From Candidatus Latescibacterota bacterium (GTDB taxonomy: Bacteria; Latescibacterota; UBA2968; UBA8231), in assembly GCA_965248355.1 (NCBI GenBank), contig OZ252098.1:5344001-5408000 (forward strand): DNA of 64,000 nt, given 5' to 3'. Of this stretch, positions 8,347-26,065 are shown one piece after another. Below the pieces are notes generated by a model that saw only the letters and a program-made list of their open reading frames with translations, made no database searches and had not been told where the DNA came from. The number at the start of each line of letters is the position of its first letter. Positions within the stretch are counted from its first letter, which is position 1. The translations under genes were made by a program, and so were the position numbers.

Positions 8347-8348
8347 TC

Positions 8349-9557: not shown

Positions 9558-9567
9558 GGGACACGCC

Positions 9568-10338
9568 GTGGCCAGAGAGAGCATCGGCCGGACCTTCACC
9601 GTCGCCTTCTTCCTGTGCGTGGTCTGCTCGGTCCTGGTCTCCGGGGCGGCCGTGGTGCTGCAGCCCATCCAGGAGACCAACGAGCTGAAGGACAAGAAGC
9701 GCAACATCCTGATGGCGGCGGGCCTCGCCGAAGAGGGCCGCACCGTGGACGAGCTCTTCGAGCGCATCGATGTCCGGATCGTCGATCTGGCCACCGGCGG
9801 CTACGTGACCGGCATCGATCCCGGCACCTACGACTACATCGCCGCCGCCTCCGACCAGGGGGTGGCCACCTCCGAGATGGGGCGGCGGGCCGGCATCAAG
9901 CGCCGCGCCCGGCTCATGCCGGCCTACCTGGTCAGCCGCCGCGGTGAGGTGGACAAGGTGATCCTGCCTATCTTCGGGAGGGGGCTGTGGTCGACCCTCT
10001 ACGGCTTCGTCGCCCTCGACCGGGACGACCTGAACACGATCCGCGGCCTCGTCTACTACCAGCACGGCGAGACCCCCGGTCTCGGAGGCGAGGTCGACAA
10101 CCCGCGCTGGAAGGCGCAGTGGAACGGCAAGCGCGCCTTCGGCGACGACGGCCGCGTGGCGATTCGCATCCCGCGCGGCGCCGTCGACGCCGGCTCCCCG
10201 GATGCCGTGCACAGCGTCGACGGGCTGTCGGGGGCCACGATCACCTCGCGAGGCGTGCGTGACATGCTGCACTACTGGCTCGGGGAGGAGGGCTACGGTC
10301 CCTTCCTGGACCGGTTGCGGGACGAAGGAGAGGCTTGA
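9568..10338 (+). CDS. nqrC: Na+-NQR subunit C
   Basis: [30 protein letters not shown] and the FMN attachment motif [11 protein letters not shown]. Confidence 0.95.
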
Positions 10339-10341
10339 ACC

Positions 10342-10965
10342 ATGGGCAAGGCCCGAGAGACCCTGCTGGCCCCCATCTTCGAGGACAACCCCATCGCCCT
10401 GCAGATCGTCGGGATCTGCTCGGCCCTGGCGGTGACCAGCAAGCTCGAGACGTCGGCCACCATGTGCCTGGCGGTGATCTTCGTCCTCGTGTTCTCCAAC
10501 GGCGCCATCAGCCTGATCCGCCGCCACATCCCCACCAACATCCGCATAATCGTGCACATGACGGTCATCGCCTCCCTGGTGATCATCGTCGACCAGTTCC
10601 TGCGCGCCTACGCCTTCGACATCAGCAAGCAGCTGTCGGTCTTCGTGGGGCTCATCATCACCAACTGCATCATCCTGGCCCGGGCCGAGGCCTTCGCCAT
10701 GAAGGAGGGTGTCGGGCTGAGCATGCTCGACGGCCTCGGCAACGCCCTCGGCTACAGCCTGATCCTGCTGGTGGTGGGCTTCGTGCGCGAGCTCTTCGGC
10801 TCGGGCCAGCTCTTCGGCGCCGAGATCCTGGCCCTGGCCTCGGAGGGCGGCTGGTACGTGCCCAACGGCCTGATGCTGCTGCCGCCGAGCGCGTTCTTCA
10901 TCATCGGCGCCTTCATCTGGGTGCTGCGCTGGTTCAAGACCGATCAGATCGAGGAGGAGGGGTGA
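10342..10965 (+). CDS. nqrD: Na+-NQR subunit D
   Basis: [34 protein letters not shown] and [12 protein letters not shown]. Confidence 0.95.
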
Positions 10966-11576
10966 TGTTCGAGGCCGGCCTCAACCTGTTCGTCAAGGCG
11001 GTCTTCGTCGAGAACATCGCCCTCGCCTTCTTCCTCGGCATGTGCACCTTCCTGGCGATCTCCAAGCGCGTCTCCACGGCCTTCGGCCTCGGCGTCGCCG
11101 TCGTCGTCGTGCAGACGATCACCGTGCCCCTGAACAACCTGGTCTACCGCCACCTGCTGCGCGAGGAGGCCCTGTCCGCCCTCGGCCTCGGCGGCGTCGA
11201 CCTGACCTTCGTGGGGCTGATCAGCTACATCGGCGTCATCGCCGCCAGCGTGCAGATCCTGGAGATGTTCCTCGACAAGTACGTGCCGGCCCTGTACAAC
11301 GCCTTGGGCAGCTTCCTGCCGCTGATCACGGTGAACTGCGCCATCCTCGGCGGATCCCTGTTCATGGTCGAGCGCGACTACGCCTTCGGCGAGAGCGTCG
11401 TCTACGGCTTCGGCTCCGGCGTCGGCTGGGCCCTGGCCATCGTCGGCCTGGCCGGCATCCGGGAGAAGCTGCGCTACGCCGACATCCCCCCGGGCCTGCG
11501 CGGCCTGGGCATCACCTTCATGACCGTGGGCCTCATGGCCATGGCCTTCATGGCCTTCTCCGGCATCCAGCTGTAG
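10965..11576 (+). CDS. nqrE: Na+-NQR subunit E
   Basis: ATG overlaps the nqrD stop. [39 protein letters not shown] and C-terminal FSGIQL. Confidence 0.95.
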
Positions 11577-11589
11577 GAAGCGACGACCA

Positions 11590-12828
11590 ATGATCGACAG
11601 CGTCCTCGGCGGCGTGAGCATGTTCACCGGCGTGGTCCTGGCCCTGGTGGCCGTCATCCTCGCGGCGCGCTCGAAGCTGGTGGCCACCGGCGACGTCACC
11701 ATCGAGGTCAACGGCGAGCGCGACGTGGTCACGCCGGCCGGCGGCAAGCTGCTGAACGTGCTGGCCGACAACGGCCTGTTCGTCTCCTCGGCCTGCGGCG
11801 GCGGCGGCACCTGCGCCCAGTGCCGGGTCAAGGTCCAGGAGGGCGGCGGCGAGATCCTGGACACCGAGAAGGAGCACATCAACCGGCGCGAGGAGAAGGA
11901 GGGGGAGCGCCTCTCCTGCCAGGTCACGGTCAAGCAGGACATGAAGATCGAGGTCCCGCCCGAGGTGTTCGGCGTCAAGCGCATGGAGTGCGAGGTCGTC
12001 TCCAACGACAACGTGGCCACCTTCATCAAGGAGCTGGTCCTCAAGCTCCCCGAGGGCGAGCCCCTGGACTTCGAGTCCGGCGGCTTCATCCAGATCGAGG
12101 TGCCGCCCTTCGAGTGCAGCTTCCGCGACTTCGAGGTGGACGAGCGCTTCCGCGAGGACTGGGACCGCTTCGGGGTCTGGGACCTGCGCACGGTGGGCAC
12201 GGAGACGGTGGTGCGGGCCTACTCCATGGCCAGCCACCCGGCCGAGGGCGACATCGTCATGCTCAACATCCGCATCGCCACGCCGCCCTTCGACCGCAAG
12301 GCCGGCGGCTGGGAGAAGGTCAACCCCGGCCTCGCCTCGTCGTACACCTTCGCCTGCAAGCCCGGCGACAAGGTGACGATCTCCGGTCCCTACGGGGAGT
12401 TCTACATCCAGGAGACCGACCGCGAGATGTGCTACATCGGTGGCGGCGCCGGCATGGCGCCCCTGCGCTCGCACCTGTTCCACCTGTTCCACACCGAGAA
12501 CACGCAGCGCAAGGTCTCCTACTGGTACGGGGCTCGGTCCAGCAAGGAGCTGTTCTACGAGGACCACTTCCGCGACCTCGAGGAGAGGTTCCCGAACTTC
12601 TCCTTCCACGTGGCCATGTCCGAGCCCCTCCCCGAGGACAACTGGACCGGGCCCACCGGATTCATCCACCAGGTCGTGCTCGAAGAGTACCTGAGCAAGC
12701 ACCCGTCACCGGAGGACATCGAGTACTACCTGTGCGGCCCCCCCCTGATGCTGCAGGCGGTGCTGGCCATGCTCGACGACCTGGGCGTCGAAGAGGAGAT
12801 GATCCGCTTCGACGACTTCGGCAGCTGA
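11590..12828 (+). CDS. nqrF: Na+-NQR subunit F
   Basis: 2Fe-2S motif [12 protein letters not shown]...RLSCQ, FAD motif [26 protein letters not shown] and C-terminal DDFG. Confidence 0.97.
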
Positions 12829-12856: not shown

Positions 12857-13117
12857 GTGACGCTCTTTCTATCAGCCCTCGTCGTCTTCGCGCTGGTGAT
12901 GGCCGGCATGGCCGTGGGCGTGATCCTCGGCAACCGGAGGATCACCGGCTCCTGCGGCGGGCTGGCCAACCTGCAGGCCGGGGACGGCGAGCCCATGTGC
13001 GAGTGCGGGGCCCGGCCCGGCCAGTCGTGCGGCGCCGACCCCGAGCGGCGCTTCGAATCGGCCGCGGCACCCGCCGGGGAGCGACTCCAGGAGGGCCGCG
13101 AGAGGGCAACCTTCTGA
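12857..13117 (+). CDS. nqrM: Na+-NQR maturation factor NqrM (DUF539)
   Basis: One TM helix ending MAVGVILG, followed by ITGSCGGLA and further Cys (CEC...C). Lies directly after nqrF. Confidence 0.8.
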   Translation: MTLFLSALVVFALVMAGMAVGVILGNRRITGSCGGLANLQAGDGEPMCECGARPGQSCGADPERRFESAAAPAGERLQEGRERATF

Positions 13118-13131
13118 AGCTGGCCGGGTCG

Positions 13132-13476
13132 TTGACCGCTTACCTGCCTGTTCTCGCCTACCTCGGTCTCTGGCTCCTGCTCGGCGCCTGTCTGGGCCTG
13201 CTGCGCCGAGCCCTCGCCGGCCCATCGCGGGAGCCCGCATCCTCCGTGCCCGGCGGCGTCGAAGTCGAGTCCGGCGATCCATGCCTGCCCCTGGCTCGAC
13301 TCGCCCCGGCCGTGTCGGGAGCCGTCCTGCTGCTGGTCCTCGGGGCGGTCGAGCTGGAGGCGGAGCCGGTCGCCGACGCTCTCCTTCCATTCCTGCTTCT
13401 CGTCCTCGTCGTCGCCATCGCCCTGATCCACGCCGGCCGTCGAAGGACGCGGTCCGACCCGGCGGAGCCTCCGTGA
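13132..13476 (+). CDS. Highly divergent NuoA-like membrane protein
   Basis: TTG start giving LTAYLPVLAYLGLWLLLG (typical NuoA N-terminus), three hydrophobic segments, and first position in the nuo-like run. The conserved YECG loop is absent. Confidence 0.55.
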   Translation: MTAYLPVLAYLGLWLLLGACLGLLRRALAGPSREPASSVPGGVEVESGDPCLPLARLAPAVSGAVLLLVLGAVELEAEPVADALLPFLLLVLVVAIALIHAGRRRTRSDPAEPP

Positions 13477-14999
13477 TCGGCCCGGTCCTGCCGCCTCCGG
13501 CCGGGCCGGCGGCCATCGAGGTCGCCGGCGGCGACCTCGAGAGGGAGGTGAGGGGCCTGCTGGACGAGGATCCGACGCTCCATCTCGTCGACTTCACCGC
13601 CGCGGGCGGCCACCGGACCGATCCCCCGCTCCGCGGGGTGTATCAACTTCGTTCCGCCGCCGGAGACCGGATCCACCTGACGGCCGCCGGTGGCGGGGAG
13701 CTGCCGGGACTGGCCCACATCTGGGCCGCCGCCGACTGGCCTGAGCGCGAGGCGGCGGAGCGCTTCGGGATCCGCTTCACCGGCCGTGAGGACCTGCGGC
13801 CCTTGATGCTCGCGGCGCCGGCCACGGCCCCTGGAGAGGGGTCTCCGCGGTCCGAAGGGGAGGTGCCGATCCACGATCCGGCCCTGGGCACCCCCTTCCG
13901 GCTCGACTTGGGGGCCCGCCTGCGGGGCGGCCGGATCATATCGGCCGAGGCCCGCCCGGGACGCCTGCACAGCGGCTTCGAGAAGCTCGCCGAGGGCCGC
14001 ACCTACGCCCAGTTGCCGGTGCTGGCCGAGAGCCTGAACGAGCAGGCGCCGTTCACGGCCGGGCTGGCGGCGGTCCTCGCCGCCGAGGCCCTGCTGGAGA
14101 TCGAGCCGCCGCCCCGGTGCACCTGGGTGCGCACCCTGCTGGCCGAGGTCAGCCGCATCGCCGCCCACTGCGCCTGGCTGGCCAATCTGGCGGGACCGGA
14201 TGCGCCTCTGTGGGGTCAGTCCCTGGCGGCCCGGGAGTCGGCGGCCCGTTTCCTGGCCGCGGCCAGCGGCCGCCGCTGGGCCACGGGGGCGCAGCGCATC
14301 GGCGGCATCGCCGCCGACGTGCCGGCCGCAGCCGACCGGCTGCTGGGGGAGCTGCGGTCCTCCGTCGACCGGCTGCGCTCGGAGGCCGAGCGCAGCACCG
14401 TCGACCACCGCGGCTGGCGCCGCCGCTTCACCGGCGTCGCGGTCCTGGACGCCGCCGGGGCCCTTTCCGCCGGAGCCTCGGGGCCGGTGGCCCGCGCCTC
14501 GGGCCTCGACCTCGACGTACGGCGCACCGATCCCTATCTCGCCTACGGCGAGGTCCGGTTCCGCGTGCCCACGGCGGATTCGGGCGACGTCGTCGACCGG
14601 ACGCGGGTTCGCCTCGAGGAGATGGGGGAGAGCCTCGCCGTCGCCCGGCAGTGCCTGGCCGCCGTCCCCGCCGGGTCGACCCTCGCCCACGAGACCCCGC
14701 AGCCGACGGTGCGTCCCACGGAGCCCGCCGAGTTGATCCGCCACTTCGAGCGCTGGATGGATGGCCACGGCCATCGTCCCCGCCCCTCCGAGGTCTACGT
14801 GCCCATCGAGTCCCCCGACGGGGAGCTCGCCTTCTACCTGGTCTCCGACGGCAGCGGCAGTCCGGCCCGGGTCCACCTGCGCTCGCCCTCCCTGTTCCAC
14901 TTCCAGGCGCTGCCGCCGCTGCTGGCGGGGCTCCGGTACAACCGCGCTCCCCAGGTGGTGGCCAGCCTCAACGTCATCGCTTCCGAGATGGACCGGTGA
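13473..14999 (+). CDS. Divergent fused NuoC/NuoD-like protein
   Basis: GTGA overlap with the upstream stop. NuoC motif AADWPEREAAERFGIRFTG; NuoD motifs GRLHSGFEKLAE, EVSRIAAH, SGPVARASG..DVRRTDPY, ESPDGEL, RSPS and C-terminal SEMDR. Confidence 0.85.
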   Translation: MIGPVLPPPAGPAAIEVAGGDLEREVRGLLDEDPTLHLVDFTAAGGHRTDPPLRGVYQLRSAAGDRIHLTAAGGGELPGLAHIWAAADWPEREAAERFGIRFTGREDLRPLMLAAPATAPGEGSPRSEGEVPIHDPALGTPFRLDLGARLRGGRIISAEARPGRLHSGFEKLAEGRTYAQLPVLAESLNEQAPFTAGLAAVLAAEALLEIEPPPRCTWVRTLLAEVSRIAAHCAWLANLAGPDAPLWGQSLAARESAARFLAAASGRRWATGAQRIGGIAADVPAAADRLLGELRSSVDRLRSEAERSTVDHRGWRRRFTGVAVLDAAGALSAGASGPVARASGLDLDVRRTDPYLAYGEVRFRVPTADSGDVVDRTRVRLEEMGESLAVARQCLAAVPAGSTLAHETPQPTVRPTEPAELIRHFERWMDGHGHRPRPSEVYVPIESPDGELAFYLVSDGSGSPARVHLRSPSLFHFQALPPLLAGLRYNRAPQVVASLNVIASEMDR

Positions 15000-15412
15000 A
15001 CGAGGCCCTGGAGGTCCATGCCCGCCGGCTGCTGGCCCGCTACCCCCGGCCCGCCGGGGCCCTCATGCCCCTCATCGACCTGGTGCTGGCCGACCGCGGC
15101 GTCTGCGACCTCGGGGCGGCGCGCTGGATCGCCGGGCTCACGGGGCTGTCGGCCGCCGCCGTGGCCGGGATCGCCTCGAGCCGCGGCGCCTCGCCGGGCG
15201 GGCGAGTACGCGTGTGCACGGGGTTGAGTTGCCGGCTCATGGGGGGTGACGAGGTCGCCCGGCGGCTGCGGGAACGCCTCGGCGACCAGGTGATCCCGGC
15301 GGCCTGCCTCGGGGTCTGCTCGGCGGCGCCCGCCTTCGAGCGGGGAGGCCGCCTCTTCGAGGGTCTGACCCCGGGGCGCCTCGACGCCCTCCTCGCCGGA
15401 GGGCGTCCGTGA
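14996..15412 (+). CDS. Divergent NuoE-like 2Fe-2S protein
   Basis: GTGA overlap. RYP...ALMPL N-terminus; VCTGLSC and CLGVC..AP give four N1a-type Cys ligands. Confidence 0.85.
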   Translation: MNEALEVHARRLLARYPRPAGALMPLIDLVLADRGVCDLGAARWIAGLTGLSAAAVAGIASSRGASPGGRVRVCTGLSCRLMGGDEVARRLRERLGDQVIPAACLGVCSAAPAFERGGRLFEGLTPGRLDALLAGGRP

Positions 15413-16725
15413 ACGAGCACCGGCTCCTGTTCGAGGGTATCGACGCCCCGGACATCGACCGGCTCCACGTCTACCACCGGCGCGGCGGCGGGGAGGGAAT
15501 CGCCCGGGCTCTGGCCATGGGATCCGAGGGCGTGGCCGGAGAGGTGACCGACTCCGGTCTGCGGGGGCGCGGCGGAGCCTGGCGGCCGGTGGGGGAGCGC
15601 TGGCAGGCGTTGCGAGAGCGCGGCGGCGCCCGCTACGTCGTCGCCGACCTGCTCGAGGCGGAACCGGGCCGCTTCCGGGACCGCAAGCTGGCCGAGCGCC
15701 AGCCCCACCGTCTGCTGGAGGGTGTGCGCATCGCCGCCCACGCCACCGGCGCCTCGGCGGCCTTCCTCTGCATCCGCGCCGACGCGGCCCGGGCGCGGAA
15801 GGCGCTGGCCGGGGCCCTGGCCGAGCTGCGCGACGCGGGTGAGATCGGCGGCCACGGCCTGCGCGTCCACGAGCACGCCGTGCCCGGACCCCTTCCGGTC
15901 GCCGCCGGCGACAGCCTGACGCTCAACCTGATCGAGGGCGGCCGCCCCGAGCCGCGGCCCCCGGACGGCACCCCGGATCCAGCCACGACTCTCTTCGGTG
16001 AGCCCGCCGCCGTGCACTCGGCCTCCACCCTGGGCTACCTGCCGCTGGTGATGGCCGGGGGGAGCACCGCCTTCCGGGCCGTGGGCAGCGCCGCGGCCCC
16101 CGGGACCCAGGCCTTCTGCCTCAGCGGTCACGTGCGCCGCCCGGGTCTCTACGAGGTGGCCCTGGGATCGGGCACCTTCCGCGATCTCGTCGAGGGGCTG
16201 GCTGGAGGGGTGCCCGGGGGCCGGCTCCTGAAGTTCGTTCTCCATTCGGGGTACGGCTCGACGCCGGTCCTCGGCGAGGCCGATCTCGACCGACCCCTCG
16301 ATCCCGCCGCCTGGGCGCGACCCGGCGGCGGCGGCCTGGACGGCGACTTCGGCGCCGGAGTCGTCATCGCCGCTGACGAGACCGTCTGCGCCGTGGACAC
16401 GGCACGGCTGGTGGCGCGCGCCCTGGCGGACGCGTCCTGCGCCCAGTGCCCGCCATGCCGGGAGGGTCTCGCCTGGGCCGCCGGGGCCCTGGAACGGCTG
16501 GAGGCGGGGACCTCCCACGCCGGGGAGCTGGAGCGGCTGCGCGCCCGGGCCGCGGCGCTCACCCCGTCCGTGGCCCTGTGCGGGCACGGCCCCCTGGCGG
16601 CCTCCGCGGTGAGCGCCCTGGCCGCGGCCTTCGACGAGGAGTTCGAGGCCCACCTGGACGGCGGCTGCCCGGTCGCCAAGGACCTGTCCATGAGAACCCC
16701 CGAGAGCATCCACGTGCGGTTCTGA
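15409..16725 (+). CDS. Divergent NuoF-like protein
   Basis: SGLRGRGGA, EAEPGRFRDR, SGHVRRPGLYEV and SCAQCPPCREG...LCGHG (N3 ligands). Confidence 0.9.
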   Translation: MNEHRLLFEGIDAPDIDRLHVYHRRGGGEGIARALAMGSEGVAGEVTDSGLRGRGGAWRPVGERWQALRERGGARYVVADLLEAEPGRFRDRKLAERQPHRLLEGVRIAAHATGASAAFLCIRADAARARKALAGALAELRDAGEIGGHGLRVHEHAVPGPLPVAAGDSLTLNLIEGGRPEPRPPDGTPDPATTLFGEPAAVHSASTLGYLPLVMAGGSTAFRAVGSAAAPGTQAFCLSGHVRRPGLYEVALGSGTFRDLVEGLAGGVPGGRLLKFVLHSGYGSTPVLGEADLDRPLDPAAWARPGGGGLDGDFGAGVVIAADETVCAVDTARLVARALADASCAQCPPCREGLAWAAGALERLEAGTSHAGELERLRARAAALTPSVALCGHGPLAASAVSALAAAFDEEFEAHLDGGCPVAKDLSMRTPESIHVRF

Positions 16726-16726
16726 G

Positions 16727-18334
16727 ATGCCCGCGGCGATCATCCACGTGGACGGGGAGGCCGTGGAGGCGCCCGAGGGGGCGAACCTGCTGACGACGCT
16801 GTTGTCCGCGGGCCGGTGGCTGCCGCACCCGTGCTTCCATCCGGCCCTGTCGGCGCCGGCCTCCTGCCGGTTGTGCGTGGCGGCTCTCGACGGACCCCGG
16901 GGGCGGGAGCTGATCACCCCCTGCAACCGCGAGGTCCGGGACGGGATGTCCCTGTTTCTCGATACGTCCGAGGTGGCGGAGGCCCGCGAGGGCCTGCTGG
17001 ACGACCTGCTCTGGCGCCATCCGGCCGACTGCGCGGTCTGCGAACGCTCCGGGGAGTGCGAGCTCCAGGAGGCGGTCCGCTCCGCCGGGGGCGGCCGGAC
17101 GCCGCCCGCGCCGGAGAGCGAGCCGGAGCGCCTCCTGTTGGGCCCCCGGCTGGTGCTCGACCGCCGCCGCTGCATCCTGTGCACCCGCTGTGTCCGCTTT
17201 GGAGAGGAGGTCGCGGAGGCTCCGGCCCTGGCCGTCGAAGGCAGCGGATCCGGCGCCCGTATCGCCGCCTGCGCCGGCGAGGAGGTCGCCGGTCCCATGT
17301 CGGGCAATCTCCTGGACCTGTGCCCGGCGGGAGCCCTGAGCGACCCCGACGAGCGCGGCGCCCCGCCGCCGTGGCGGCTGACGGGGGTCTCCAGTGTGTG
17401 CGCCGGCTGCGCCAGCGGCTGCGCCACCCGGGTGGACGTGCACGACGGCCGCGTATGGAGGGTCAAGCCGCGTCCGGAGGGCGCCGAGGGCGGCTACTGG
17501 CTGTGCGATCGCGGCCGCTACGGCTGGCAGCCCCAGGGCCCGCGCCTGCAGGCGCCGCGCCGGGACGGGCGCGACACCGGTTGGGACACGGCCCTGGCCG
17601 GCGTGGCCGAGGAGATGGAGCAGGCCCGCCGGGCCGCGGTGATGCTGAGCCCCTACCTGACCAACGAGGAGACCTTCCTGCTGATCCAGCTCGCCCGCCG
17701 GTGGAGGGCGGAGCTGTACCTGTGGGAGGAGGAGGCCGCCGAGGGCGATCGCACCTTCCCCGGCGGCTTCACGATCCGCGCCTCCCGGGGTCCGAACGCG
17801 GCCGGCGCCAAGGCCGTGGCCCAGGCGGCCGGATCCCGTCTCCTTGCCGCCGGGGACCTGGGCGCCGGCGTCGAGGTCCTGTATGTGGTGGGAGGGTCGC
17901 TGTGCGGAGAGGGCCCGCCGCCGGTCCCGTCCGGAGGCGCGCGGCTGATCGCCCAGGACGTCACCCCGTCGGCGCTGGTGGACGGCGCCGCCATCACTCT
18001 GGCCGGCGGCAGCGCCTGGACCGAGAAGGAGGGCACCTTCGTGGACGCCCTCGGACGGGTCCGGAGGGTCCGCGCCGCCGCCGACCCACCCGGCGACGCG
18101 AGACCGGATCTGTGGATCCTCAGCGCCCTCTGGCACGGCGGTCCGAACCGCGACTCGGCGGACCGGGTCTTCGCCCGGCTGGCGCGCACCCTGCGCGAGC
18201 CCTTCGCCCGCCTCGACTACGGGGTTCTCGACGCCCGCTCTCCGGCAAGGGGCGTCGCCTTCGGCGGCGGATGGTCGACCTGGCTGCAGCGCCACGGGCT
18301 CGTCCCGGTCGGAGACCACGGAGGCCCGCCGTGA
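16727..18334 (+). CDS. Divergent NuoG-like multi Fe-S protein
   Basis: PCFHPALS..SCRLC..PC, HPADCAVCERSGECELQ, RCILCTRCVRF..DLCPAGAL, CAGCASGC..LCDRGRY and WTEKEGTF. Confidence 0.9.
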   Translation: MPAAIIHVDGEAVEAPEGANLLTTLLSAGRWLPHPCFHPALSAPASCRLCVAALDGPRGRELITPCNREVRDGMSLFLDTSEVAEAREGLLDDLLWRHPADCAVCERSGECELQEAVRSAGGGRTPPAPESEPERLLLGPRLVLDRRRCILCTRCVRFGEEVAEAPALAVEGSGSGARIAACAGEEVAGPMSGNLLDLCPAGALSDPDERGAPPPWRLTGVSSVCAGCASGCATRVDVHDGRVWRVKPRPEGAEGGYWLCDRGRYGWQPQGPRLQAPRRDGRDTGWDTALAGVAEEMEQARRAAVMLSPYLTNEETFLLIQLARRWRAELYLWEEEAAEGDRTFPGGFTIRASRGPNAAGAKAVAQAAGSRLLAAGDLGAGVEVLYVVGGSLCGEGPPPVPSGGARLIAQDVTPSALVDGAAITLAGGSAWTEKEGTFVDALGRVRRVRAAADPPGDARPDLWILSALWHGGPNRDSADRVFARLARTLREPFARLDYGVLDARSPARGVAFGGGWSTWLQRHGLVPVGDHGGPP

Positions 18335-19266
18335 CCTCACCTTCCGACACCCCCCTCGGCTGCGCTTCCATCGCCTTCGTCGCCACCCTCGGTCTGGTCC
18401 TCGCCAGCGCCGTCGTCGAGCGGACGGCGATGGCCCGCGCCTCCGGTCTTCGCCGACCGGCACCGCTGGGTCCGGTGGCCGACGTCGTCAAGATGATGGC
18501 CAGATCGCGGAGGGCCGCCCCCGGTTCGGGTGTCTCGGCCTTCGTCGCCCTGCTGCCGGCCCTCGGCCTGGTCGCCTTCCTGCCCCCGGGTGCGGCCGTC
18601 GGCGGTCTGCTGCCCTCCGGGGCGGCGGTCTCCGGCGGGGCGATCCACGCGCTGCTGCTGCTGGCCCTGCTGGCGGTCTCCGCCCACGCGTGGCTGCTGC
18701 CGGCGGCCTTCGTCGATCCCAGTCGGCGGCGGGAGCTGATCGATTCCGCGGGCTGCCTTCTGGCTTGCCATCTGGCCGCGCTCCTGGTGGTGGCGGGACT
18801 CCTGATCGACTGCTCGGGGCCGGTCCTGGCGGGGTCGTCTCGAGCACCGGCCGCCTGGCCTCTCTGGACCCATCCCGCCGGTGCTGCGGCCTGGATCGGG
18901 ATCCTGGTGGTCCTCTCCCGTTGCACCGGATCGGTTCTCGGCGGTCGTCGGGCCGGCCTGGGCCCGGGCTCCGGTCCGGCCGCGCTCTGGCTGCCCCTGT
19001 CCCGGCACCTTCAGCGGGGGGCCGTAGCGCTGCTCGCCTTCCATCTCTTCTGCGGCGGGCTGCCGTGGGCCGCCGGCTGGGTCGAGGTCCTGCCAGGCCT
19101 GACCGCGGCCGCCGTGCTGGCCACGGCCGGGATTCTCGGCGTCAGCCTCTCCGACGCCACGGCCGAGGGGCTGACACGGGTGGCCTGGGCGCGCATCGTG
19201 CCCCTGGCCCTGGTCGACGTCTCCGTCTCCGTCCTTCGCTCCGGGGGCTGGATGCCGTGGAGCTGA
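18331..19266 (+). CDS. Highly divergent NuoH-like membrane protein
   Basis: GTGA overlap. VVERTAMAR...LGPVADVVKMM matches NuoH ERK...QPxADxxKL; also WPLWTHP, LFCGG and WARIVPLALV. Confidence 0.7.
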   Translation: MTSPSDTPLGCASIAFVATLGLVLASAVVERTAMARASGLRRPAPLGPVADVVKMMARSRRAAPGSGVSAFVALLPALGLVAFLPPGAAVGGLLPSGAAVSGGAIHALLLLALLAVSAHAWLLPAAFVDPSRRRELIDSAGCLLACHLAALLVVAGLLIDCSGPVLAGSSRAPAAWPLWTHPAGAAAWIGILVVLSRCTGSVLGGRRAGLGPGSGPAALWLPLSRHLQRGAVALLAFHLFCGGLPWAAGWVEVLPGLTAAAVLATAGILGVSLSDATAEGLTRVAWARIVPLALVDVSVSVLRSGGWMPWS

Positions 19267-19715
19267 TCCTCCTCGCCGCGTCCGCCGTCGCCGGTGGCGC
19301 CGGCCTCGCCGCCGCGTACTGGCGGTCGGCCCACGGTGCCTGCGTCTGCATCGGCCTCGCTGCTGCGGCTGTGGCCGTCCTCGCCGCCATGCACGACGCC
19401 TTCACCGCTGCCGCCGTGCTCCTCGTGCAGGCAGCGGTCGGACTGGCGGTCCTGCCCATGGCGGTGCCCGCCGGCACGAGTCCATGCCGCCCCCGGCGGG
19501 TGCTGCCTGCCGTGGTGGTCCTGGGGCTGGGAACGATCCTGGCCATGGTGCTGACCGCAGGCGTTGCCACAGGCCCGTTTCCGCCGGCCTACCCCCCGCG
19601 CAGCGGCACTCTGGTCTTCGCCCTGGGCGGTCTGTTCCTGCTCTCCGCCGTGGTCGGCATCAGCGCCCTCTCCCGCCGGGCTCCCGCCGGCCCGGCCCCC
19701 GGGGAGGCATCGTGA
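19257..19715 (+). CDS. Highly divergent NuoJ-like membrane protein
   Basis: GTG 19257, ~152 aa, five hydrophobic segments. C-terminal FALGGLFLLSAVVGISALSRR resembles NuoJ LLLxAxxGAxxL. Position between H-like and K-like genes. Confidence 0.6.
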   Translation: MELILLAASAVAGGAGLAAAYWRSAHGACVCIGLAAAAVAVLAAMHDAFTAAAVLLVQAAVGLAVLPMAVPAGTSPCRPRRVLPAVVVLGLGTILAMVLTAGVATGPFPPAYPPRSGTLVFALGGLFLLSAVVGISALSRRAPAGPAPGEAS

Positions 19716-19984
19716 CCATCACGGCCTGGGTCCTGGCTGTGGCCGCGCTGCTCCTGGCCGCCGGCGTGGCCGCCGGTCTGGTCCGGTCTCACGTCCTCAC
19801 ACCCCTGGTGGGCGGGCAGCTCGGAATCCTCGGGGCCGTGCTCGCCGTGGTCGTGTTGCTGGGCGAGCCGGGTCGCGTGCTGGCCGTCGCGGCCCTTGCG
19901 GTGGCGGGCGCGCAGGCCGGCCTGGTGCTGGCGCTGATCCGCCGCGCCCACCCCGAGGGGCCCGAAGAGACTCCCCACTCGTGA
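19712..19984 (+). CDS. Highly divergent NuoK-like membrane protein
   Basis: GTGA overlap, 90 aa, three TM segments. GRVLAVAALAVAGAQAGLVLALI matches NuoK GQxFAxFxxxVAAAEAAVGLAI. Confidence 0.7.
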   Translation: MTITAWVLAVAALLLAAGVAAGLVRSHVLTPLVGGQLGILGAVLAVVVLLGEPGRVLAVAALAVAGAQAGLVLALIRRAHPEGPEETPHS

Positions 19985-21687
19985 CGGCCACGGTTCAGGC
20001 CGCTGCGGCCCTCGCGGCCGTCCTCTTCGGGCTCGCGGGCGCAGCCGCCGCCGACTTGGCGGGGCGTCGGGGGCCGGCCCATGCCCTCCGGCTCCTTTCC
20101 GGGCTCGCATCGGCCGTGTTCGCCGCGGGCGTGGCCAGCGCCGGACCCTTCGACATGTCCTTGGGTTCGTGGATGGAAGTAGGCGGCGCCAGCGTCGGAT
20201 TCCGCCTGCGAGGCGACGGGACCGCGGCGGCGGCGGTGGGCTCCGCCGCCGTCCTCGGCCTGCTGTATCCGCTCGCGCAGCCCGGCCTCGACGGCCCCCG
20301 GCGCGCGCTGATCACGGCGACCACCGCCGGGGTCGTCCTGCTCTCGTGCGCCGCGGACTGGTTCCCCCTGCTGCTGGGATGGGAGATCGCCGCGGCCGCC
20401 CTGCTGGTGACGGCGGCGACGTCCACGGCCGTCTCCGGGGCCGGGGCCCGCCGGCTCCTGTGGCTGACCCGCATCGGTTCGGTAGCCTTGGTGGCCGCCG
20501 CCGTGACCACCCTGGCGGCGGGCGGCGCCCAGGGCGGCATCGACTGGACCGCGGCGCCCACGGCCCGGCTCCTGGCCCTGGCCGCCGTCATCGCCCTCGG
20601 CGCCTGGCCTCTCCACCAGTGGATCCTGGAGGTGTCGCCGTGCCCGGCGGCCGGTGCCGCGGCGGCCGCCCTCACCGTGGCCGGCGCCGCCCTCCTGGCC
20701 CGGGTCGGTCCCGGCCCGGGGCCGCTGCAGGAGGCGGTCTTCGGGTTCGGTCTGGTCGCCGCCGCCGCCGCCTCGGCCGCGGCCCTGGCCAGCCGCGGCC
20801 TCCGCCGGACTCCGGCGTGGATCGCGGTCGCCCAGGCCGGCCTGATCGCGGCGGCCATGGCTGCCGGTCCACCATCGGGCTGGCTGTTGCTGGCGGCGGC
20901 CCTGTGCGCCCGCCTCTGCCTGTCCACGGGGATAGGACGCCTGCGGGCCGCTCTGCCGGCCGCGGAACGGCTGGACGAACTCGGCGGGCTGGCCGCCTCC
21001 CTGCCGGCGGCCCGGTGGTTGTGCCTGGCCGGAGCCCTGACCCCCGTTCTCTCCCTAACCGGCCTGTGGGGCCAGGCCCTTCTGCTGCAGCATGCCTGGG
21101 GCGGCTACGGACCCGCCGGGCTCGGTGTCGCCCTGCTGGTCCTGGCCCTGGCCGTGTTCCCCTTGGTCAGGCTCGCCCTTCCACCCTTTGCCGGGTCGGC
21201 TTCCCAGGCCTCCCTGGGGAAGCTGGATCGGCCGGCCCTTCCGGTCGTGGCCGGCCTGGTCCCGGCCGGGCTGGCGTTTACGGCTCTTCCCGGTCTTTCC
21301 TGGTGGTGGCTGACGCCGCCCCCGGCGCAGGGACTCGCCCTGGCCGCCACGGCCAATGCCGCGGCCCTGGGGATCTCCGTCCTGATCTGGCGCGGAGGAT
21401 TGAAACCGGCCCCGGCGCCCGCCTCGGCCACTCGCCGGCTCGCCGCCGCCGGGTTTGGCGCCGCAGCCGCCCTGCAGGCGGTCTCGGGCGCGGCCACTTC
21501 CCTGGGCCGCGGCCTGTGGACCTTCGTCGACAGCGCCGTCATCGGCGGAGCCTGGGGCGCCATGGACCTGATCCTGCGTGGCGCGGGCTGGCTGCTGGCG
21601 CGGGTGGAGGACGACCACAGGCCGGTATGGGCCGCGGCCCTGGCCGCGGGCACGGCGCTCGCGGTCCTGTGGTCCCTGGGAGGCTGA
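19981..21687 (+). CDS. Highly divergent NuoL-like antiporter-like subunit
   Basis: GTGA overlap. SWMEVGGASVGFRLRGD, LLLGWE, TRIG, WPLHQW, LDELGGL and LWTFVDSAVI. Confidence 0.75.
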   Translation: MTATVQAAAALAAVLFGLAGAAAADLAGRRGPAHALRLLSGLASAVFAAGVASAGPFDMSLGSWMEVGGASVGFRLRGDGTAAAAVGSAAVLGLLYPLAQPGLDGPRRALITATTAGVVLLSCAADWFPLLLGWEIAAAALLVTAATSTAVSGAGARRLLWLTRIGSVALVAAAVTTLAAGGAQGGIDWTAAPTARLLALAAVIALGAWPLHQWILEVSPCPAAGAAAAALTVAGAALLARVGPGPGPLQEAVFGFGLVAAAAASAAALASRGLRRTPAWIAVAQAGLIAAAMAAGPPSGWLLLAAALCARLCLSTGIGRLRAALPAAERLDELGGLAASLPAARWLCLAGALTPVLSLTGLWGQALLLQHAWGGYGPAGLGVALLVLALAVFPLVRLALPPFAGSASQASLGKLDRPALPVVAGLVPAGLAFTALPGLSWWWLTPPPAQGLALAATANAAALGISVLIWRGGLKPAPAPASATRRLAAAGFGAAAALQAVSGAATSLGRGLWTFVDSAVIGGAWGAMDLILRGAGWLLARVEDDHRPVWAAALAAGTALAVLWSLGG

Positions 21688-21703
21688 GGTGGACGCCGTC
21701 TCC

Positions 21704-23146
21704 ATGACCCTGGGCCTCGTGATGCTGCCTCTCGGGACGGCGCTGGTACTCGCTCTGGCGCCGCTGCAGGGGATCGCCGCACGGAGGGTCTCGACGGGCG
21801 CCGCAGCAGGCCTGCTGGTTCTCGCCTCCTTCTTCTGTTTCTCATCCGGCGGCCCGGCGCCCCCGGCCCAAGGGCTCTCCCTGTCGTGGCCACCGGCGGC
21901 GGGCTCGGGGTTGTCACTGGCCGTCGACGGCCTCAACCGGTACGCCCTGCTGGCCCTGGCGGCGGTGGTGCTGGTGGCGGTGAGCGTCGAGGGCCGCTTC
22001 GGAGGGAGCGCCAGCCGGGCCCGGCTGGCCCTGGCCCTGACCTGCGCCGCGGGCCTGGCACTCGTCCTCACCTCCCGCGACCTGATGCTGGCTGCCGCTG
22101 GCCACGGCCTGGCCGGACTGGCCCTGGGGGCGGTCCTCGGTCTGGGCACCGAGGCCGGCAGCGAGCGCGCCGGCCGCCGCTTCGCCCGCTGGGCCGTGAG
22201 CGGCTCACTCCTGCTGGCCGCCGCCGCGGCCCTGTGCGGCGCCGGGGCCGGCACGACCCTCGTCGACGAGCTCGCCGTCATGGGGGTCTCGAACGGGGGA
22301 GCCGCGGCGGCCCTGGGGGCAGCGGCCCTGGCCATGCAGATCCCCCTCGTGCCCTTCCACACCTGGCTTGTTCCGGTGTGCACGAGCGGCGCCCTCTCCG
22401 GGAGAATCCTCGTGGCCGGCGCCTGGTGCGTGGTGGGGGTCTTCGGCCTGTTGAGATTCGGGCTGGCCCTGTTTCCGGCCGAGGCGCTGGCGGCCTCGCC
22501 GTGGCCCGTCCTGTGGGCGGGCTCGAGCGCTGCCTGGACGGCCGTGCTGGCCCTTGTCCAGGCGCGCCCCGGCCTGGTGCGCCGCGTGGCGCTGGCCGTG
22601 GCCTCCACCGGCGGCCTGATGGCCGCGGGAGCCCTGGAACCGGGCGGCCTCCAGGCCGTGGGGGCCGCCGCCCTGGCTGCCGGCATCGCCCTGCCGCGCG
22701 CCGGCCTGCTGGTGCTCGCCGTGTGGATCGAGGACCGGCGCGCCGGCGGTCTGCGCACCGCGAGCGCCTGGGTCGTCCTGAGCCTGATCGTGGCCGCGGC
22801 CCCGGGGGGCGGCGCCCTGCCCGGGTGGCTGACGCTGCTTGTGGGGGCCCTGGCCGCGCACCCGGGGATCGGCTGGCTCCTGGTTCTTTCCACGGGAGCC
22901 CTCGGGTTGGCCCTGCTGGAGCCGGCGGTGGACCTGGCGAGGAGACCGGCTTCAGCCTCCCGGGCGGCTCTGCGCCTGGTCCTGGCCCTCGCCATCGTCT
23001 CCGCCGGGGTCGTGGGCCTGCGGCCCGAGCCCCTTCTTTCGGGAGCCCGCCCCGTCGTCCAGGGAATGCTGTCGCGCTCCCCGGCCGACCTGGATCGAGC
23101 CGGGGATGCGGCCCGGGCCTGGCCGTCGGCCGAGGTCCTCCCATGA
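21704..23146 (+). CDS. Highly divergent NuoM-like antiporter-like subunit
   Basis: Start ATG 21704 or GTG 21689. LAVDGLN, SRDL, IPLVPFHTWL, GVFGLLRF and GLRPEPLL. Confidence 0.75.
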   Translation: MTLGLVMLPLGTALVLALAPLQGIAARRVSTGAAAGLLVLASFFCFSSGGPAPPAQGLSLSWPPAAGSGLSLAVDGLNRYALLALAAVVLVAVSVEGRFGGSASRARLALALTCAAGLALVLTSRDLMLAAAGHGLAGLALGAVLGLGTEAGSERAGRRFARWAVSGSLLLAAAAALCGAGAGTTLVDELAVMGVSNGGAAAALGAAALAMQIPLVPFHTWLVPVCTSGALSGRILVAGAWCVVGVFGLLRFGLALFPAEALAASPWPVLWAGSSAAWTAVLALVQARPGLVRRVALAVASTGGLMAAGALEPGGLQAVGAAALAAGIALPRAGLLVLAVWIEDRRAGGLRTASAWVVLSLIVAAAPGGGALPGWLTLLVGALAAHPGIGWLLVLSTGALGLALLEPAVDLARRPASASRAALRLVLALAIVSAGVVGLRPEPLLSGARPVVQGMLSRSPADLDRAGDAARAWPSAEVLP

Positions 23147-24549
23147 AATGGACCGACCTGGTCCGCCCGGACCTGGCGCCGGAGGCGAGCCTGGGCCTGC
23201 TGGCCATCGGCCTGGCGCTGCTCGACGCACTGCTCTGGCCGCGCCGCTCCAGCCGGGCCCCGTCGTACCTCACGTTGGGCGGCCTGCTCGTGGCGGTATC
23301 TCTCTCCCTGCAGACCTGGGACCCCGTCTTCCACCGGCGGCACGGCTGGCTCTACGCCGACCCGGCGGCCACCCTCGCCGACCTTCTGATCCTCGGCGGG
23401 GCCGTGCTCGCGGCCCTGCTGGCGGCCGGCGAGCCCTCCCGGGCCGGTGACCGGACCGCGGCGGGGGTCCTGACCGCCCTGAGCGCCCTGGGCGCCATGG
23501 TCGCCGTCTCCGCCCGGGATCTCATGGTGCTGTTCGTCGGTCTCGAGCTCAGCACCCTGAGCCTGCTCGCCTACAACGCCCTGGGTCCGGCCGCCGCCGC
23601 TCGCGCCGCCCTGCGCCAGGCCGGGCCCTGGGCCGCGGCCACGGGGCTGATCCTGGTGGGCATCGCCTGCCTGTGGGCCGGGGCCGGCACCTCCGACTGG
23701 GATCTGGCCCGGGACATGCGTCCCTGGTCTGCCGGGCTGACGGTCACCGGGGGGGCGCTCCTGCTGGCCGGCCTCGCCGTGCGCGCCGGGGCCGTGCCCT
23801 TCCACTTCTGGGTGAGCGAGGTCACAGCCGGCTGCGCTCCCTCGGCGGTGCTGCTGACCGTGGCCACCGCCGTGGTGCCGGCCCTCCTGGTCGCCGGCCG
23901 GCTGGCGGAGGTCCTGGCCGCCGTCCGCCCGGACCTGCGCTCTCTGCTGCTGGCCGCGGCGATCCTGACGGTGACGGCCGGCAACCTCCTGGCCCTGCCC
24001 CGGCGGAGGCTCGCACGGCTGCTCTCGTACGGCGTGGTGATCCAGGCGGGCTATGCCCTGGCGGCCCTGGCCGCCGTCCCGGTGGGGTCCTCGCCCGCCC
24101 TGTGGCTGCAACTGGCCGCGATGATCCTCGCCATCGCCGGCGGACTGTCGGTGAGCGGCCTCATCGGCCGCGGAGGGACGGCGGCCGGCCTGGCCCGCCG
24201 GAAACCGCTTGCCGGCGCCGCCCTGTGCGTTTGCCTGATCGCCCTGGCCGGCCTGCCGCCAACGGCCGCCTTCGCCGCACGTGCGGTTCTGTTCTCGGGT
24301 CTCGCGGAACCTCTGTCGGCGGCCTCGGTGCTGGTGCTGGCCAACGCCCTGCTCACCGCCTGGGTCTTCCTCCGCTTCGCCGCCCGTGTGGCCTGGGGGC
24401 GGGAGGAGGCCCCAGGGGACCTGTCGCCGGATGCCGGGAGCCTGTCGGCGGCGCTCCTGAGCGCCGGTCTGCTGCTGATGCTGGGCCTGTGGCCGGCGCC
24501 GCTGGCCCGGGCCGCGGAGGCCGCCGGGCTGGCGGCCGGGCTGAGATGA
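23143..24549 (+). CDS. Divergent NuoN-like antiporter-like subunit
   Basis: ATGA overlap. LAPE, DLMVLFVGLELS, AVPFHFW, GNLLAL..RLARLLSY, LAGLPPTAAF and LGLWPAPL. Confidence 0.85.
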   Translation: MKWTDLVRPDLAPEASLGLLAIGLALLDALLWPRRSSRAPSYLTLGGLLVAVSLSLQTWDPVFHRRHGWLYADPAATLADLLILGGAVLAALLAAGEPSRAGDRTAAGVLTALSALGAMVAVSARDLMVLFVGLELSTLSLLAYNALGPAAAARAALRQAGPWAAATGLILVGIACLWAGAGTSDWDLARDMRPWSAGLTVTGGALLLAGLAVRAGAVPFHFWVSEVTAGCAPSAVLLTVATAVVPALLVAGRLAEVLAAVRPDLRSLLLAAAILTVTAGNLLALPRRRLARLLSYGVVIQAGYALAALAAVPVGSSPALWLQLAAMILAIAGGLSVSGLIGRGGTAAGLARRKPLAGAALCVCLIALAGLPPTAAFAARAVLFSGLAEPLSAASVLVLANALLTAWVFLRFAARVAWGREEAPGDLSPDAGSLSAALLSAGLLLMLGLWPAPLARAAEAAGLAAGLR

Positions 24550-24794
24550 GCTCGCGCGGGGGCCGTCCGCCCGGGGCGCTGGGCGAGATCGGCCGCCTCG
24601 GCGGCCTCGGGGCGCAGTTCGCGGTGACCGTGGCCTTGTGCGCCGCCGCCGGCTGGTGGGCCGACGGCGAGTTGGGAACGTCGCCGTGGCTGCTGCTGGC
24701 CGGGGCCTTCGCCGGCGCCGTGGCCGCCTTCTACCAGGTCTGCCGGGCCCTGACCTCCGGCGACCGCCCGAAGGACCTCGAGGAAGGAGAATGA
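24546..24794 (+). CDS. AtpZ/AtpI-family ATP synthase accessory protein
   Basis: ATGA overlap with the NuoN-like stop. GWWADGELGTSPWLLLAG is the typical GxxLDxxxxTxPW signature. Confidence 0.8.
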   Translation: MSSRGGRPPGALGEIGRLGGLGAQFAVTVALCAAAGWWADGELGTSPWLLLAGAFAGAVAAFYQVCRALTSGDRPKDLEEGE

Positions 24795-25093
24795 TCATGC
24801 AGGATCCATGGATCGCCGCCGCGGCCGGCGCGGTGGTGGCCGCGGTCAGCGCCGCCATCGCCTGGGCGGGTCTGCGCCTGGGAGCGCGCCACCCGCGGGC
24901 CCTGGTGGCGGCCATCCTCGGCGGCACGGCAATCAGGCTGCTGCTGGTGGCCGCCGTCTCCATTCTGCTGCTGTGGTTCACCGATACTCACCGCACCGGC
25001 TACGCCGCCGGCCTGGGGGTGGCCTACCTGGTCTTCCTCGCTCTGGAGGTGGTACTCGTCGCCCGCGGCGCCGGCCGGAGGCAGCCGCCCTGA
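24791..25093 (+). CDS. ATP synthase protein I-like membrane protein
   Basis: ATG 24791 after AGGAAGGAG. Hydrophobic, with GGTAIRLLL and YLVFLALEV. Directly precedes atpB. Confidence 0.65.
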   Translation: MIMQDPWIAAAAGAVVAAVSAAIAWAGLRLGARHPRALVAAILGGTAIRLLLVAAVSILLLWFTDTHRTGYAAGLGVAYLVFLALEVVLVARGAGRRQPP

Positions 25094-25099
25094 GGCCTG

Positions 25100-25213: not shown

Positions 25214-26065
25214 ATGGCAGGAGAGGCGTCCGCCGGCGGCGCAGACAATCAGGTAGACGTCATCGGGCACGTCCTGGACCACGATTCCCTGGAGGTGCCC
25301 TTCGTCAACGCCCAACACATCTTCGACGGCCACATCGATCTGCGGGGCCTGTCCGAGGCGCTCGGGCTGTCCGAGCCGATCTTCGGCATCGACATGTCCA
25401 TCACCCGCCACGTGGTGATGATGTGGCTGGCCAGTGGACTCCTCGTCCTCACCATGCTGGCCTGCTTCCGCCGCCCCGCCCTGGTGCCGTCGGGTCTGGC
25501 CAACCTCCTGGAGACGATCGTCCTGTTCCTGCGGGACGAGGTGGTCCTGCCCGTCATGGGAGAGGGGGGCCGCGCCTACCTGCCGTTCCTGCTCACCGTG
25601 TTCTTCTTCATCCTGTACTGCAACCTCTTCGGCCTGCTGCCGTACAGCGCCACGGCGACCGGGAACATCAGCGTCACCGCCGCCCTCGCCCTGATCTCCT
25701 TCGCCGTCACCCAGGGGGCGGGCATCCTCAACAACGGCTTCTTCGGCCACTGGAGGAACCTGGTGCCGTCGGGCCTGCCGGCGCCGCTGCTGATCATCCT
25801 CGTCCCCATCGAGATCATCGGCATGCTGGCCAAGCCCTTCGCCCTGTGCATCCGCCTGTTCGCCAACATGATCGCCGGCCACATCGCCATCCTCGTCTTC
25901 CTCGGCATGATCATCATGCTGAAGAGCTACCTGGTGGCCCCGGCCTCGGTGGTCCTGGCGGCCGCGCTCTACCTGCTGGAGATCTTCATCGCCTTCATCC
26001 AGGCCTTCATCTTCACGCTGCTCACGGCCCTGTTCGTGAACATGGCCGCCCACCCGGAACACTGA
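25214..26065 (+). CDS. atpB: F0F1 ATP synthase subunit a
   Basis: NLFGLLP, TATGNISVT, KPFALCIRLFANMIAGH and LEIFIAFIQAFIF. Confidence 0.97.
   Translation: MAGEASAGGADNQVDVIGHVLDHDSLEVPFVNAQHIFDGHIDLRGLSEALGLSEPIFGIDMSITRHVVMMWLASGLLVLTMLACFRRPALVPSGLANLLETIVLFLRDEVVLPVMGEGGRAYLPFLLTVFFFILYCNLFGLLPYSATATGNISVTAALALISFAVTQGAGILNNGFFGHWRNLVPSGLPAPLLIILVPIEIIGMLAKPFALCIRLFANMIAGHIAILVFLGMIIMLKSYLVAPASVVLAAALYLLEIFIAFIQAFIFTLLTALFVNMAAHPEH

Follow-up and report, generated by a model that had tools for sequence, protein, structure and literature searches.

A diverged complex I operon between nqr and atp, with unlinked nuoB and nuoI, is kept by selection and probably no longer pumps

Eleven consecutive genes related to those of respiratory complex I (nuo) occupy positions 13132-24549 (+ strand) of the 64,000-nucleotide stretch of DNA analyzed here, which we call the window (G000:C1:5344001-5408000; the genome, G000, is a single contig of 5.5 Mb with ~70% GC). 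The operon lies between the genes for the NADH:quinone oxidoreductase that translocates Na+ (Na+-NQR; nqrA-F and nqrM, upstream) and those for the ATP synthase (from atpZ, downstream). We mark the members of this degenerate complex I set with a prime (nuoA', nuoCD', nuoB', nuoI', and so on) and refer to the whole as nuo'. An original prediction had described a hollowed-out complex I, with neither nuoB nor nuoI and with its catalytic residues erased. In our view, it is settled what the locus is and where nuoB and nuoI lie. As to what the genes encode today, we favor, with moderate confidence, a complex I derivative that is maintained by selection, probably does not pump, has an intact electron wire and unlinked NuoB and NuoI genes, and is redundant beside Na+-NQR.

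In this interpretation, nuo' would represent locally a complex I that contains NuoEFG and occurs across the class Gemmatimonadetes. Its genes form a 12-gene operon, or one of 11 genes where C is fused to D, with nuoB and nuoI located apart from it. In the nuo' family, the operon lies between nqr and atp and has diverged far faster than its counterparts in sister families. The proteins would still be made and would form a membrane-anchored complex with a working iron-sulfur (Fe-S) wire, which may no longer pump protons by the canonical mechanism or bind quinone canonically. The complex would have persisted as a non-energy-conserving electron-transfer complex after Na+-NQR assumed coupled NADH:quinone oxidation.

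Scanning the genome with profiles for NuoB (PF01058) and NuoI (TIGR01971) returned two sites for the former and two strong sites for the latter. One match of each lies within a second, canonical nuo operon at ~4.544-4.555 Mb (- strand), which the original prediction had named as something to look for. This operon encodes 11 subunits in the order A, B, (C by spacing), D, H, I, J, K, L, M, N, without E, F, and G. The other matches are orphans outside the window. The first, nuoB', at G000:C1:1787654-1788049 (- strand), is flanked by an ATPase gene resembling apbC/mrp on one side and a prmA-like gene on the other; its 132-amino-acid (aa) product scores 132.7 bits against NF005012 (cutoff, 116) and carries the CC...C...C ligands. 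The second, nuoI', at G000:C1:931589-932023 (+ strand), encodes 144 aa with two CxxCxxCxxxCP motifs, and its stop overlaps the dxr start. Both products are rich in Ala, Arg, and Pro, resembling the nuo' proteins.

These orphans coevolve with nuo'. The order apbC-nuoB'-prmA recurs in 11/11 family loci (one flank is truncated in two of these), and nuoI'-dxr recurs in 3/3; the ligands and frames of both genes are intact across at least seven genera. Over the same groups of genomes, identity falls in parallel for NuoB' (83%, 59-62%, and 37-51%) and NuoF' (84%, 58-61%, and 42-48%). In phylogenetic trees, to which long-branch warnings apply, NuoI sequences split into operon and orphan types with 100/100 support, the orphans of the family falling in the orphan-type clade on long branches, and the operon-type clade of NuoB (100/98) leaves the orphans of the family out. 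Copy numbers of NuoB and NuoI match the operon count, with two of each in the two-operon genomes G079, G030, and G023; G006 also has two of each. G017 has the nuo' operon and one copy of each, with no further PF01058 or TIGR01971 match pointing to a second operon.

The gene directly upstream of nuoB' (G000:C1:1788046-1788855, - strand) encodes an ApbC/Mrp-type P-loop ATPase in 11/11 family loci (L130-L137, L140, L150, and L163). Ind1/NUBPL, a relative of ApbC/Mrp, aids Fe-S cluster insertion into mitochondrial complex I, and an assembly pairing of this ATPase with nuoB' is possible.

Within the operon, the slots for nuoB and nuoI are closed, as had been described: the nuoA'/nuoCD' overlap leaves no space for nuoB and the nuoH'/nuoJ' overlap none for nuoI. 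Yet the view that these are clean local deletions did not survive comparison with related loci, where the same gene order serves canonical-looking operons. In other genera of the same family (G023, G014, and G017), the order nqr-nqrM-A-CD-E-F-G-H-J-K-L-M-N-atpZ-atpB recurs, and the position between nqr and atp is constant in at least five genera. Family f3 (G030 and G028) has A-C/D-E-F-G-H-J-K-L-M-N-atp without nqr, while in family f4 (G079 and G095) and a genus of family f2 (G055), A-CD-E-F-G-H-J-K-L-M is followed by an mrp cluster. None of the NuoEFG-type (EFG-type) operons examined has nuoI between H and J, and only that of G055 has nuoB. The operons of the sister families (L124-L127 and L035) share an orthologous gene order with nuo', the f3 operon likewise adjoins atp, and their orphan NuoB and NuoI come from the same clades as those of G000. 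They differ in having all key residues and canonical subunits (Pfam scores of 423.7 bits for NuoH and 133.6 bits for NuoA), and their genomes lack an NqrA match; subunit identity is 59-79% between these families versus 17-42% between genera of the nuo' family. As far as gene order and phylogeny can tell, the absence of nuoB and nuoI from the locus is the ancestral split arrangement, not a local deletion. Since the two genes are routinely unlinked in this class, “incomplete” nuo operons there are not to be read as incomplete enzymes.

In G079 (L124, 14872-18980) and similarly in L125 and L127, the operon ends at nuoM and runs into the mrp cluster, which contains MnhE, MrpF, MnhG, MnhB, MrpC-like, and MrpD-like genes and the start of an MrpA-like gene; no separate nuoN is recognizable. 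The layout of f4 and G055 may be a nuo-mrp hybrid arrangement.

The accessible part of a survey of complex I isozymes (Spero et al. 2015, PMC4453560) lists Gemmatimonas aurantiaca T-27 with two of them. The genomes studied here likewise combine one EFG-type operon with a second nuo operon; that part of the survey scores presence and clade and describes neither unlinked nuoB and nuoI nor the loss of pump residues. The portions available of the full-text literature, including PMC9426454, PMC4453560, PMC3150298, and PMC4758237, describe no unlinked nuoB or nuoI and no degenerate complex I for Gemmatimonadota.

Homology to complex I is graded along the operon. Pfam matches on the window proteins identify NuoCD', NuoE', NuoF', NuoG', NuoM', and NuoN'. 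The fusion protein NuoCD' (13473..14999; 508 aa) matches 49kDa (214.9 bits) and 30kDa (47.9 bits) and aligns to solved NuoD/49-kDa chains in the PDB with E values of 4e-58 to 1e-39; a [NiFe]-hydrogenase-like identity was rejected, the protein having only 3 Cys in 508 aa. NuoE' (14996..15412; 138 aa) matches 2Fe-2S_thioredx (53.1 bits); NuoF' (15409..16725; 438 aa) matches Complex1_51K (72.4 bits) and NADH_4Fe-4S (60.9 bits); and NuoG' (16727..18334; 535 aa) matches Fer2_4, NADH-G_4Fe-4S_3, Fer4_Nqo3, and Molybdop_Fe4S4. In the membrane arm, NuoM' (21689..23146; 485 aa) and NuoN' (23143..24549; 468 aa) reach 29.9 and 77 bits in Pfam and 99.1% and 99.8% probability in hhalign comparisons. The same Pfam search gave no match for NuoA', NuoH', NuoJ', or NuoL'. 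NuoL' (19981..21687; 568 aa) was nevertheless found with PF00361 in the genome scan (37.2 bits; hhalign, 98.4%), and the homology of NuoH' (18331..19266; 311 aa) is visible by hhalign only (88% probability, E value of 2.8e-6, and 240 columns against canonical NuoH), the sole PF00146 match in the genome being the canonical copy. NuoK' (19712..19984; 90 aa) matches Oxidored_q2 at 20 bits, under the cutoff. NuoA' (13132..13476; 114 aa with three hydrophobic segments) is named by position and size, and NuoJ' (19257..19715; 152 aa), which has no family match, by position. Alignments of NuoA', NuoJ', and NuoK' from the genus reach a nonsignificant 1.5%, 2.5%, and 12% hhalign probability against their canonical counterparts, so that these three identifications are putative, being drawn from position and intermediate sequences only. 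All 11 genes are absent from the NCBIfam equivalogs (as are NuoA', NuoH', and NuoJ') or fall under their cutoffs (NuoF, for example, at 248 versus 558.65).

Taken with nuoB' and nuoI', the 11 genes, with C and D fused, would encode all 14 core subunits of complex I. The presence of NuoE', NuoF', and NuoG' sets the operon apart from those of 11-subunit (NuoEFG-less) complex I-like enzymes. Compared with the bacterial enzyme (Nuo/Nqo, 14 core subunits; Thermus thermophilus and Escherichia coli), nuo' has the same subunit set and order (with C and D fused), all Fe-S ligand motifs, and homologous NuoL', NuoM', and NuoN' (hhalign, 98-99.8%). It differs in its unlinked nuoB and nuoI and in the replacement of the Tyr87/His38 equivalents, the NuoK Glu pair, the NuoH signatures, and most Lys/Glu residues of NuoL, NuoM, and NuoN.

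Each of the 11 open reading frames (ORFs) matches the periodicity of GC content at third codon positions (GC3), and they follow one another in the predicted order, A-CD-E-F-G-H-J-K-L-M-N. Eight of the 11 junctions, counting that of nuoN' with atpZ, are 4-nucleotide (nt) stop/start overlaps, in keeping with what had been noted; nuoH'/nuoJ' is a 10-nt overlap, and nuoF'/nuoG' and nuoL'/nuoM' are 1-nt spacers. Read by eye, GGAG or GAGG lies at most 15 nt upstream of six of the 11 starts. GC content is 75-77% in the operon versus ~70% in its flanks, and the proteins are enriched in Ala, Leu, Gly, Val, Pro, and Arg (NuoL' is 27% Ala; NuoM' has no Lys). An antisense ORF of 1308 aa whose frame carries no GC3 signal runs across nuoL'-N' (21055-24981, - strand). 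It is a by-product of 76% GC and cautions against ORF length as evidence here. The nuo' frames are indeed free of stops, but open frames are cheap at such GC, so that this alone proves little and the argument has to be carried by insertions and deletions (indels) and by the ratio of nonsynonymous to synonymous substitution rates (dN/dS, omega).

Both speak for selection. When 13132-24549 is aligned at the DNA level with each of three congeners, indels in multiples of 3 nt number 15, 17, and 14 of 20, and the others occur where genes meet or compensate one another over at most 28 nt, bar one 1-nt insertion in nuoF' of G007; in the same alignments, the atpZ-atpB spacer has indels of 1, 2, 3, and 1 nt. 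Among the matches listed for four public metagenome runs (strains at ~97.5% identity), in-gene indels measure 3, 3, 3, and 30 nt, and a 2-nt indel falls at the nuoF'/nuoG' junction. The frames are intact in eight genomes of the genus wherever they are assembled, except for the G007 insertion and a scaffold gap of 10 N in nuoG' of G009; these two gene models were excluded from the counts. Estimated by YN00, omega is 0.05-0.15 for nuoCD', nuoE', nuoF', and nuoG', 0.18-0.53 for nuoA', nuoH', nuoJ', nuoK', nuoL', nuoM', and nuoN', and 0.01-0.08 for nqr genes and atpB; 13 cells returned as “err” and 16 as “-” (no comparable gene model) were left out. NG86 estimates (0.12-0.46) rank the genes in the same way; the NG86 value for atpB in the second species group (dN of 1.24 at 86% identity) is a gene-model artifact and was not used. 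Gene models of relatives were built by tblastn and ORF extension, a composition-based caller having been dropped for its poor performance on lower-GC loci.

The operon is thus not decaying neutrally: all 11 genes are under ongoing purifying selection, and the frameshifts, stops, and dN/dS near 1 of a pseudogenized operon were not found. The original prediction had preferred selection to neutral decay, and omega values of 0.05-0.53 with frame-preserving indels in related loci bear it out. One of its proposals, that translation is kept merely to avoid polarity on the downstream atp genes, is at odds with an omega of ~0.1 in nuoCD', nuoE', nuoF', and nuoG', which excludes a translation-only constraint at least for the peripheral arm.

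Divergence is far faster than in the flanks, as had been seen together with the compositional bias: identity to the nearest species is 63-84% for nuo' genes versus 93-96% for nqrF and atpB. Members of the closest species group in the genus share 75-87% identity, and identity between the two species groups is 33-60%, the range for nqrF being 80-93%. In the closest species group, the fraction of outgroup-invariant residues retained (invariance being defined on at most six canonical-like sequences) is 0.49 for CD, 0.45 for E, 0.48 for F, and 0.51 for G in the peripheral arm. For the membrane arm, it is 0.20 for A, 0.23 for H, 0.25 for J, 0.22 for K, 0.24 for L, 0.30 for M, and 0.29 for N.

The unusual feature of nuo' is its degeneration, which extends through the family. 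As given in the accessible parts of PMC4758237 and PMC5938582, Tyr87 and His38 of Thermus NuoD are ligands of the quinone head group, and the latter source, likewise as available, describes the Lys/Glu chain of NuoL, NuoM, and NuoN (ion pair, middle Lys, and terminal Lys/Glu) and the two Glu residues of NuoK. Residues of NuoL, NuoM, NuoN, NuoK, and NuoD were mapped to Thermus numbering by motif context. In NuoCD', the HPxxHG loop is rebuilt to DPxxxTP[FWY]RLDL, and the Tyr is replaced by Glu within “LNEQAP”; both are new motifs, conserved genus-wide at the former quinone site. The Tyr of “DRxNY” in NuoD survives in G017; two genera have Glu in its place and one has Asp. Both membrane Glu residues of NuoK' have become Gln, and in all four family genera examined, Glu is replaced by Gln or Gly. 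NuoM' has lost all four pump residues (Glu to Gly, Lys to Gln, Lys to Ala/Val, and Glu to Trp). NuoL' retains the Glu of transmembrane segment 5 (TM5), while its ion-pair Lys, bridging His, and terminal Lys are gone, and NuoN' retains the TM5 Glu with changes of Lys to Arg, Lys to Val, and Lys to Arg. The canonical signatures of NuoH are absent throughout the genus. With the quinone-site His/Tyr, the NuoK Glu pair, and most Lys/Glu of NuoL, NuoM, and NuoN replaced, a canonical proton-pumping NADH:quinone oxidoreductase is very unlikely, and on this point we concur with the original prediction.

The Fe-S ligands tell the opposite story, and here the claim of erased catalytic residues, valid for the quinone site and the membrane arm, fails. 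All family members keep 4/4 cysteines in NuoE', 4/4 N3 cysteines in NuoF', and 15/16 outgroup-invariant cysteines in NuoG', and, as read by eye, 4/4 in NuoB' and 8/8 in NuoI'. NuoF' also retains the GRGGAW loop and E.EPG.F.DR. With the motifs assigned to clusters as we take them to correspond, the ligands of the whole chain (N1a, N3, N1b, N4, N5, N6a/b, and N2) appear to be present.

The distribution of Na+-NQR suggests how such a complex could have become redundant. In the tables of one 121-genome sample of the class, 29 genomes outside the family have an unfused F'-type gene (best E value at most 2.2e-63), all in groups without an NqrA match (f4, 0/22; f3, 0/3; g25, 0/3; g26, 0/2; g29, 0/1). 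In turn, 24 genomes outside the family are NqrA positive (g17, 21/21; g28, 2/3; g23, 1/1) and have no F' match better than 3.4e-51, the level of the NuoE-F fusion class. Within the family, NqrA is found in 56/64 genomes. Related genomes are not independent, and the pattern reflects few transitions. As had been proposed, Na+-NQR plausibly took over the coupled role and made nuo' redundant. If nuo' is a non-pumping NADH oxidizer, it would do the job of NDH-2, the type II NADH dehydrogenase (redox balancing without charge translocation). NDH-2 is a functional analogue only, an unrelated single-subunit flavoprotein for which we claim no homology to nuo'.

Several observations weigh against a maintained complex with an intact wire. 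The block is absent from many family genomes, an F'-type gene occurring in only 18/64 other genomes and nqrM being followed directly by atpZ in 4/4 examined, so that the complex is dispensable. Omega reaches ~0.5 in the membrane subunits, and NuoA', NuoJ', and NuoK' are unrecognizable by profile comparison. In G007 (L031), the 1-nt insertion maps to the equivalent of window position 16603, 41 codons ahead of the end of nuoF', and shifts the last part of this gene into a frame that continues into nuoG'. The original frame retains 69% identity to the query, and the frameshift reflects either a mistake in assembly or a lesion that arose very recently. Near the nucleotide site of NuoF', outgroup-invariant motifs have changed in the genus (CGEET to AAGDS, NNVxT to HTAST, and NxDESEPG to DLLEAEPG), which, given the roles that these residues presumably have, makes NADH oxidation itself uncertain. 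The conserved Fe-S cysteines could be needed for folding only. Finally, a search of sequencing runs listed no RNA run holding the nuo' stretch.

Some of these observations would fit an expressed relic awaiting deletion, a functionless product of the nqr-atp transcription unit. The only selection left would then be against polarity on atp and against the toxicity of Fe-S or membrane products that misfold. We regard this as a lesser but real possibility. The repeated clean absence of the block agrees with it, as do the very fast evolution between genera, the GC-rich composition enriched in Ala, Gly, Pro, and Arg, and the stop/start overlaps that continue through to atpZ. Yet omega in nuoCD', nuoE', nuoF', and nuoG' approaches that of working respiratory genes, new motifs are conserved genus-wide at the former quinone site, and the state has persisted through family-level divergence. 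Polarity cannot account for the unlinked nuoB' and nuoI', which keep their ligands and frames across at least seven genera, and the 420-nt gap before atpB gives atp room for a promoter of its own, though none was detectable in our scan.

A different and rather unlikely outcome is that the complex acquired a new activity after the arrival of Na+-NQR, with a full NADH-to-N2 wire, a rebuilt quinone pocket, and an electrically silent membrane arm; it might pass electrons to a nonquinone acceptor, sense redox state, or partner with NQR or the ATP synthase. If true, nuo' would be no relic but a “pump-dead” complex I that has a new activity and is maintained by selection.

Few energy converters are as conserved as complex I, whose Lys/Glu chain and quinone ligands are regarded as essential. 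Nearly all of these residues have been replaced in this lineage, across several genera, with every Fe-S ligand kept and all reading frames under purifying selection. As sister lineages have either the intact enzyme or a clean deletion, they would provide graded natural intermediates, usable to separate the parts of complex I needed for assembly and electron transfer from those needed for coupling.

It is doubtful that NuoE', NuoF', and NuoG', with or without NuoCD', NuoB', and NuoI', serve as a module for the canonical 11-subunit complex, leaving the nuo' membrane genes as leftovers. The canonical operon does lack E, F, and G, the peripheral arm is far better conserved than the membrane arm, and NuoE/F occur elsewhere in the genome only as a 580-aa NuoE-NuoF fusion that is formate dehydrogenase-like. 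However, G017, with a single NuoB and NuoI match and no second operon in evidence, keeps the operon and both orphans; the membrane genes have omega below 1 and frame-preserving indels only; and NuoCD', NuoB', and NuoI' duplicate subunits that the canonical operon already encodes. The fusion gene adjoins that for a 950-aa protein with a NuoG-like N terminus and a full molybdopterin domain (G000:C1:3807068-3811681, - strand), and by its domains the pair looks like an NAD-linked formate dehydrogenase.

A purely structural role, such as organizing Na+-NQR and/or the ATP synthase, with clusters kept for stability only, is improbable; it corresponds to the scaffold or assembly platform of the original prediction. 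The constant place between nqr and atp and the loss of catalytic residues alongside retention of fold-critical cysteines would suit such a scaffold, but members of the same family operate nqr and atp in the absence of nuo', and in sister families the operon adjoins either atp alone or neither of the two. Least credible of all is a complex truly without NuoB and NuoI whose wire ends at N5, as the original prediction had concluded from the absence of both genes from the locus: intact, coevolving orphans of the matching phylogenetic type with complete Cys motifs, an outcome it had named in advance, together with conserved catalytic residues, as refuting it, are encoded elsewhere, and the same split arrangement serves the canonical-looking operons of sister families.

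Upstream of nuo', nqrA ends at 8346, and nqrB, nqrC, nqrD, nqrE, and nqrF follow at 8265..12828 (+ strand; Pfam NQR2_RnfD_RnfE, FMN_bind, Rnf-Nqr, and Fer2/FAD_binding_6/NAD_binding_1), nqrE being assigned by position only. The gene for the NQR maturation factor, nqrM (12857..13117, + strand; Pfam NqrM, 27.7 bits), ends 14 nt before nuoA' and is kept in all related loci. Downstream, the atpZ/atpI-like gene (24546..24794, + strand; ATPase_gene1, 56.9 bits) overlaps the nuoN' stop (ATGA) and is followed by the 420-nt gap and then by atpB, E, F, A, G, D, and C, atpB (a subunit) lying at 25214..26065 (+ strand; ATP-synt_A, 197.5 bits). The gap (24795-25213) is noncoding, is also found in relatives without nuo', and gathers 1-3-nt indels; it may be a candidate site for an atp promoter or regulatory leader. 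A consensus scan of 6000-25999 gave no promoter-like sites and three terminator-like sites versus 3.5 expected. We dropped the “Na+ island” idea of a Na+-coupled ATP synthase, since the c subunit, read by eye, lacks the Gln/Ser-Thr motif that we take to be its Na+ signature.

In the canonical operon, a gene for a 362-aa IS630-like transposase (Pfam DDE_3 and helix-turn-helix domains) lies between nuoD and nuoH (G000:C1:4550994-4552082, - strand; L006:2496-3584), and its insertion could be polar on nuoH-N. The NuoD-NuoI spacing in G006 has room for nuoH alone, so that the insertion looks strain or species specific.

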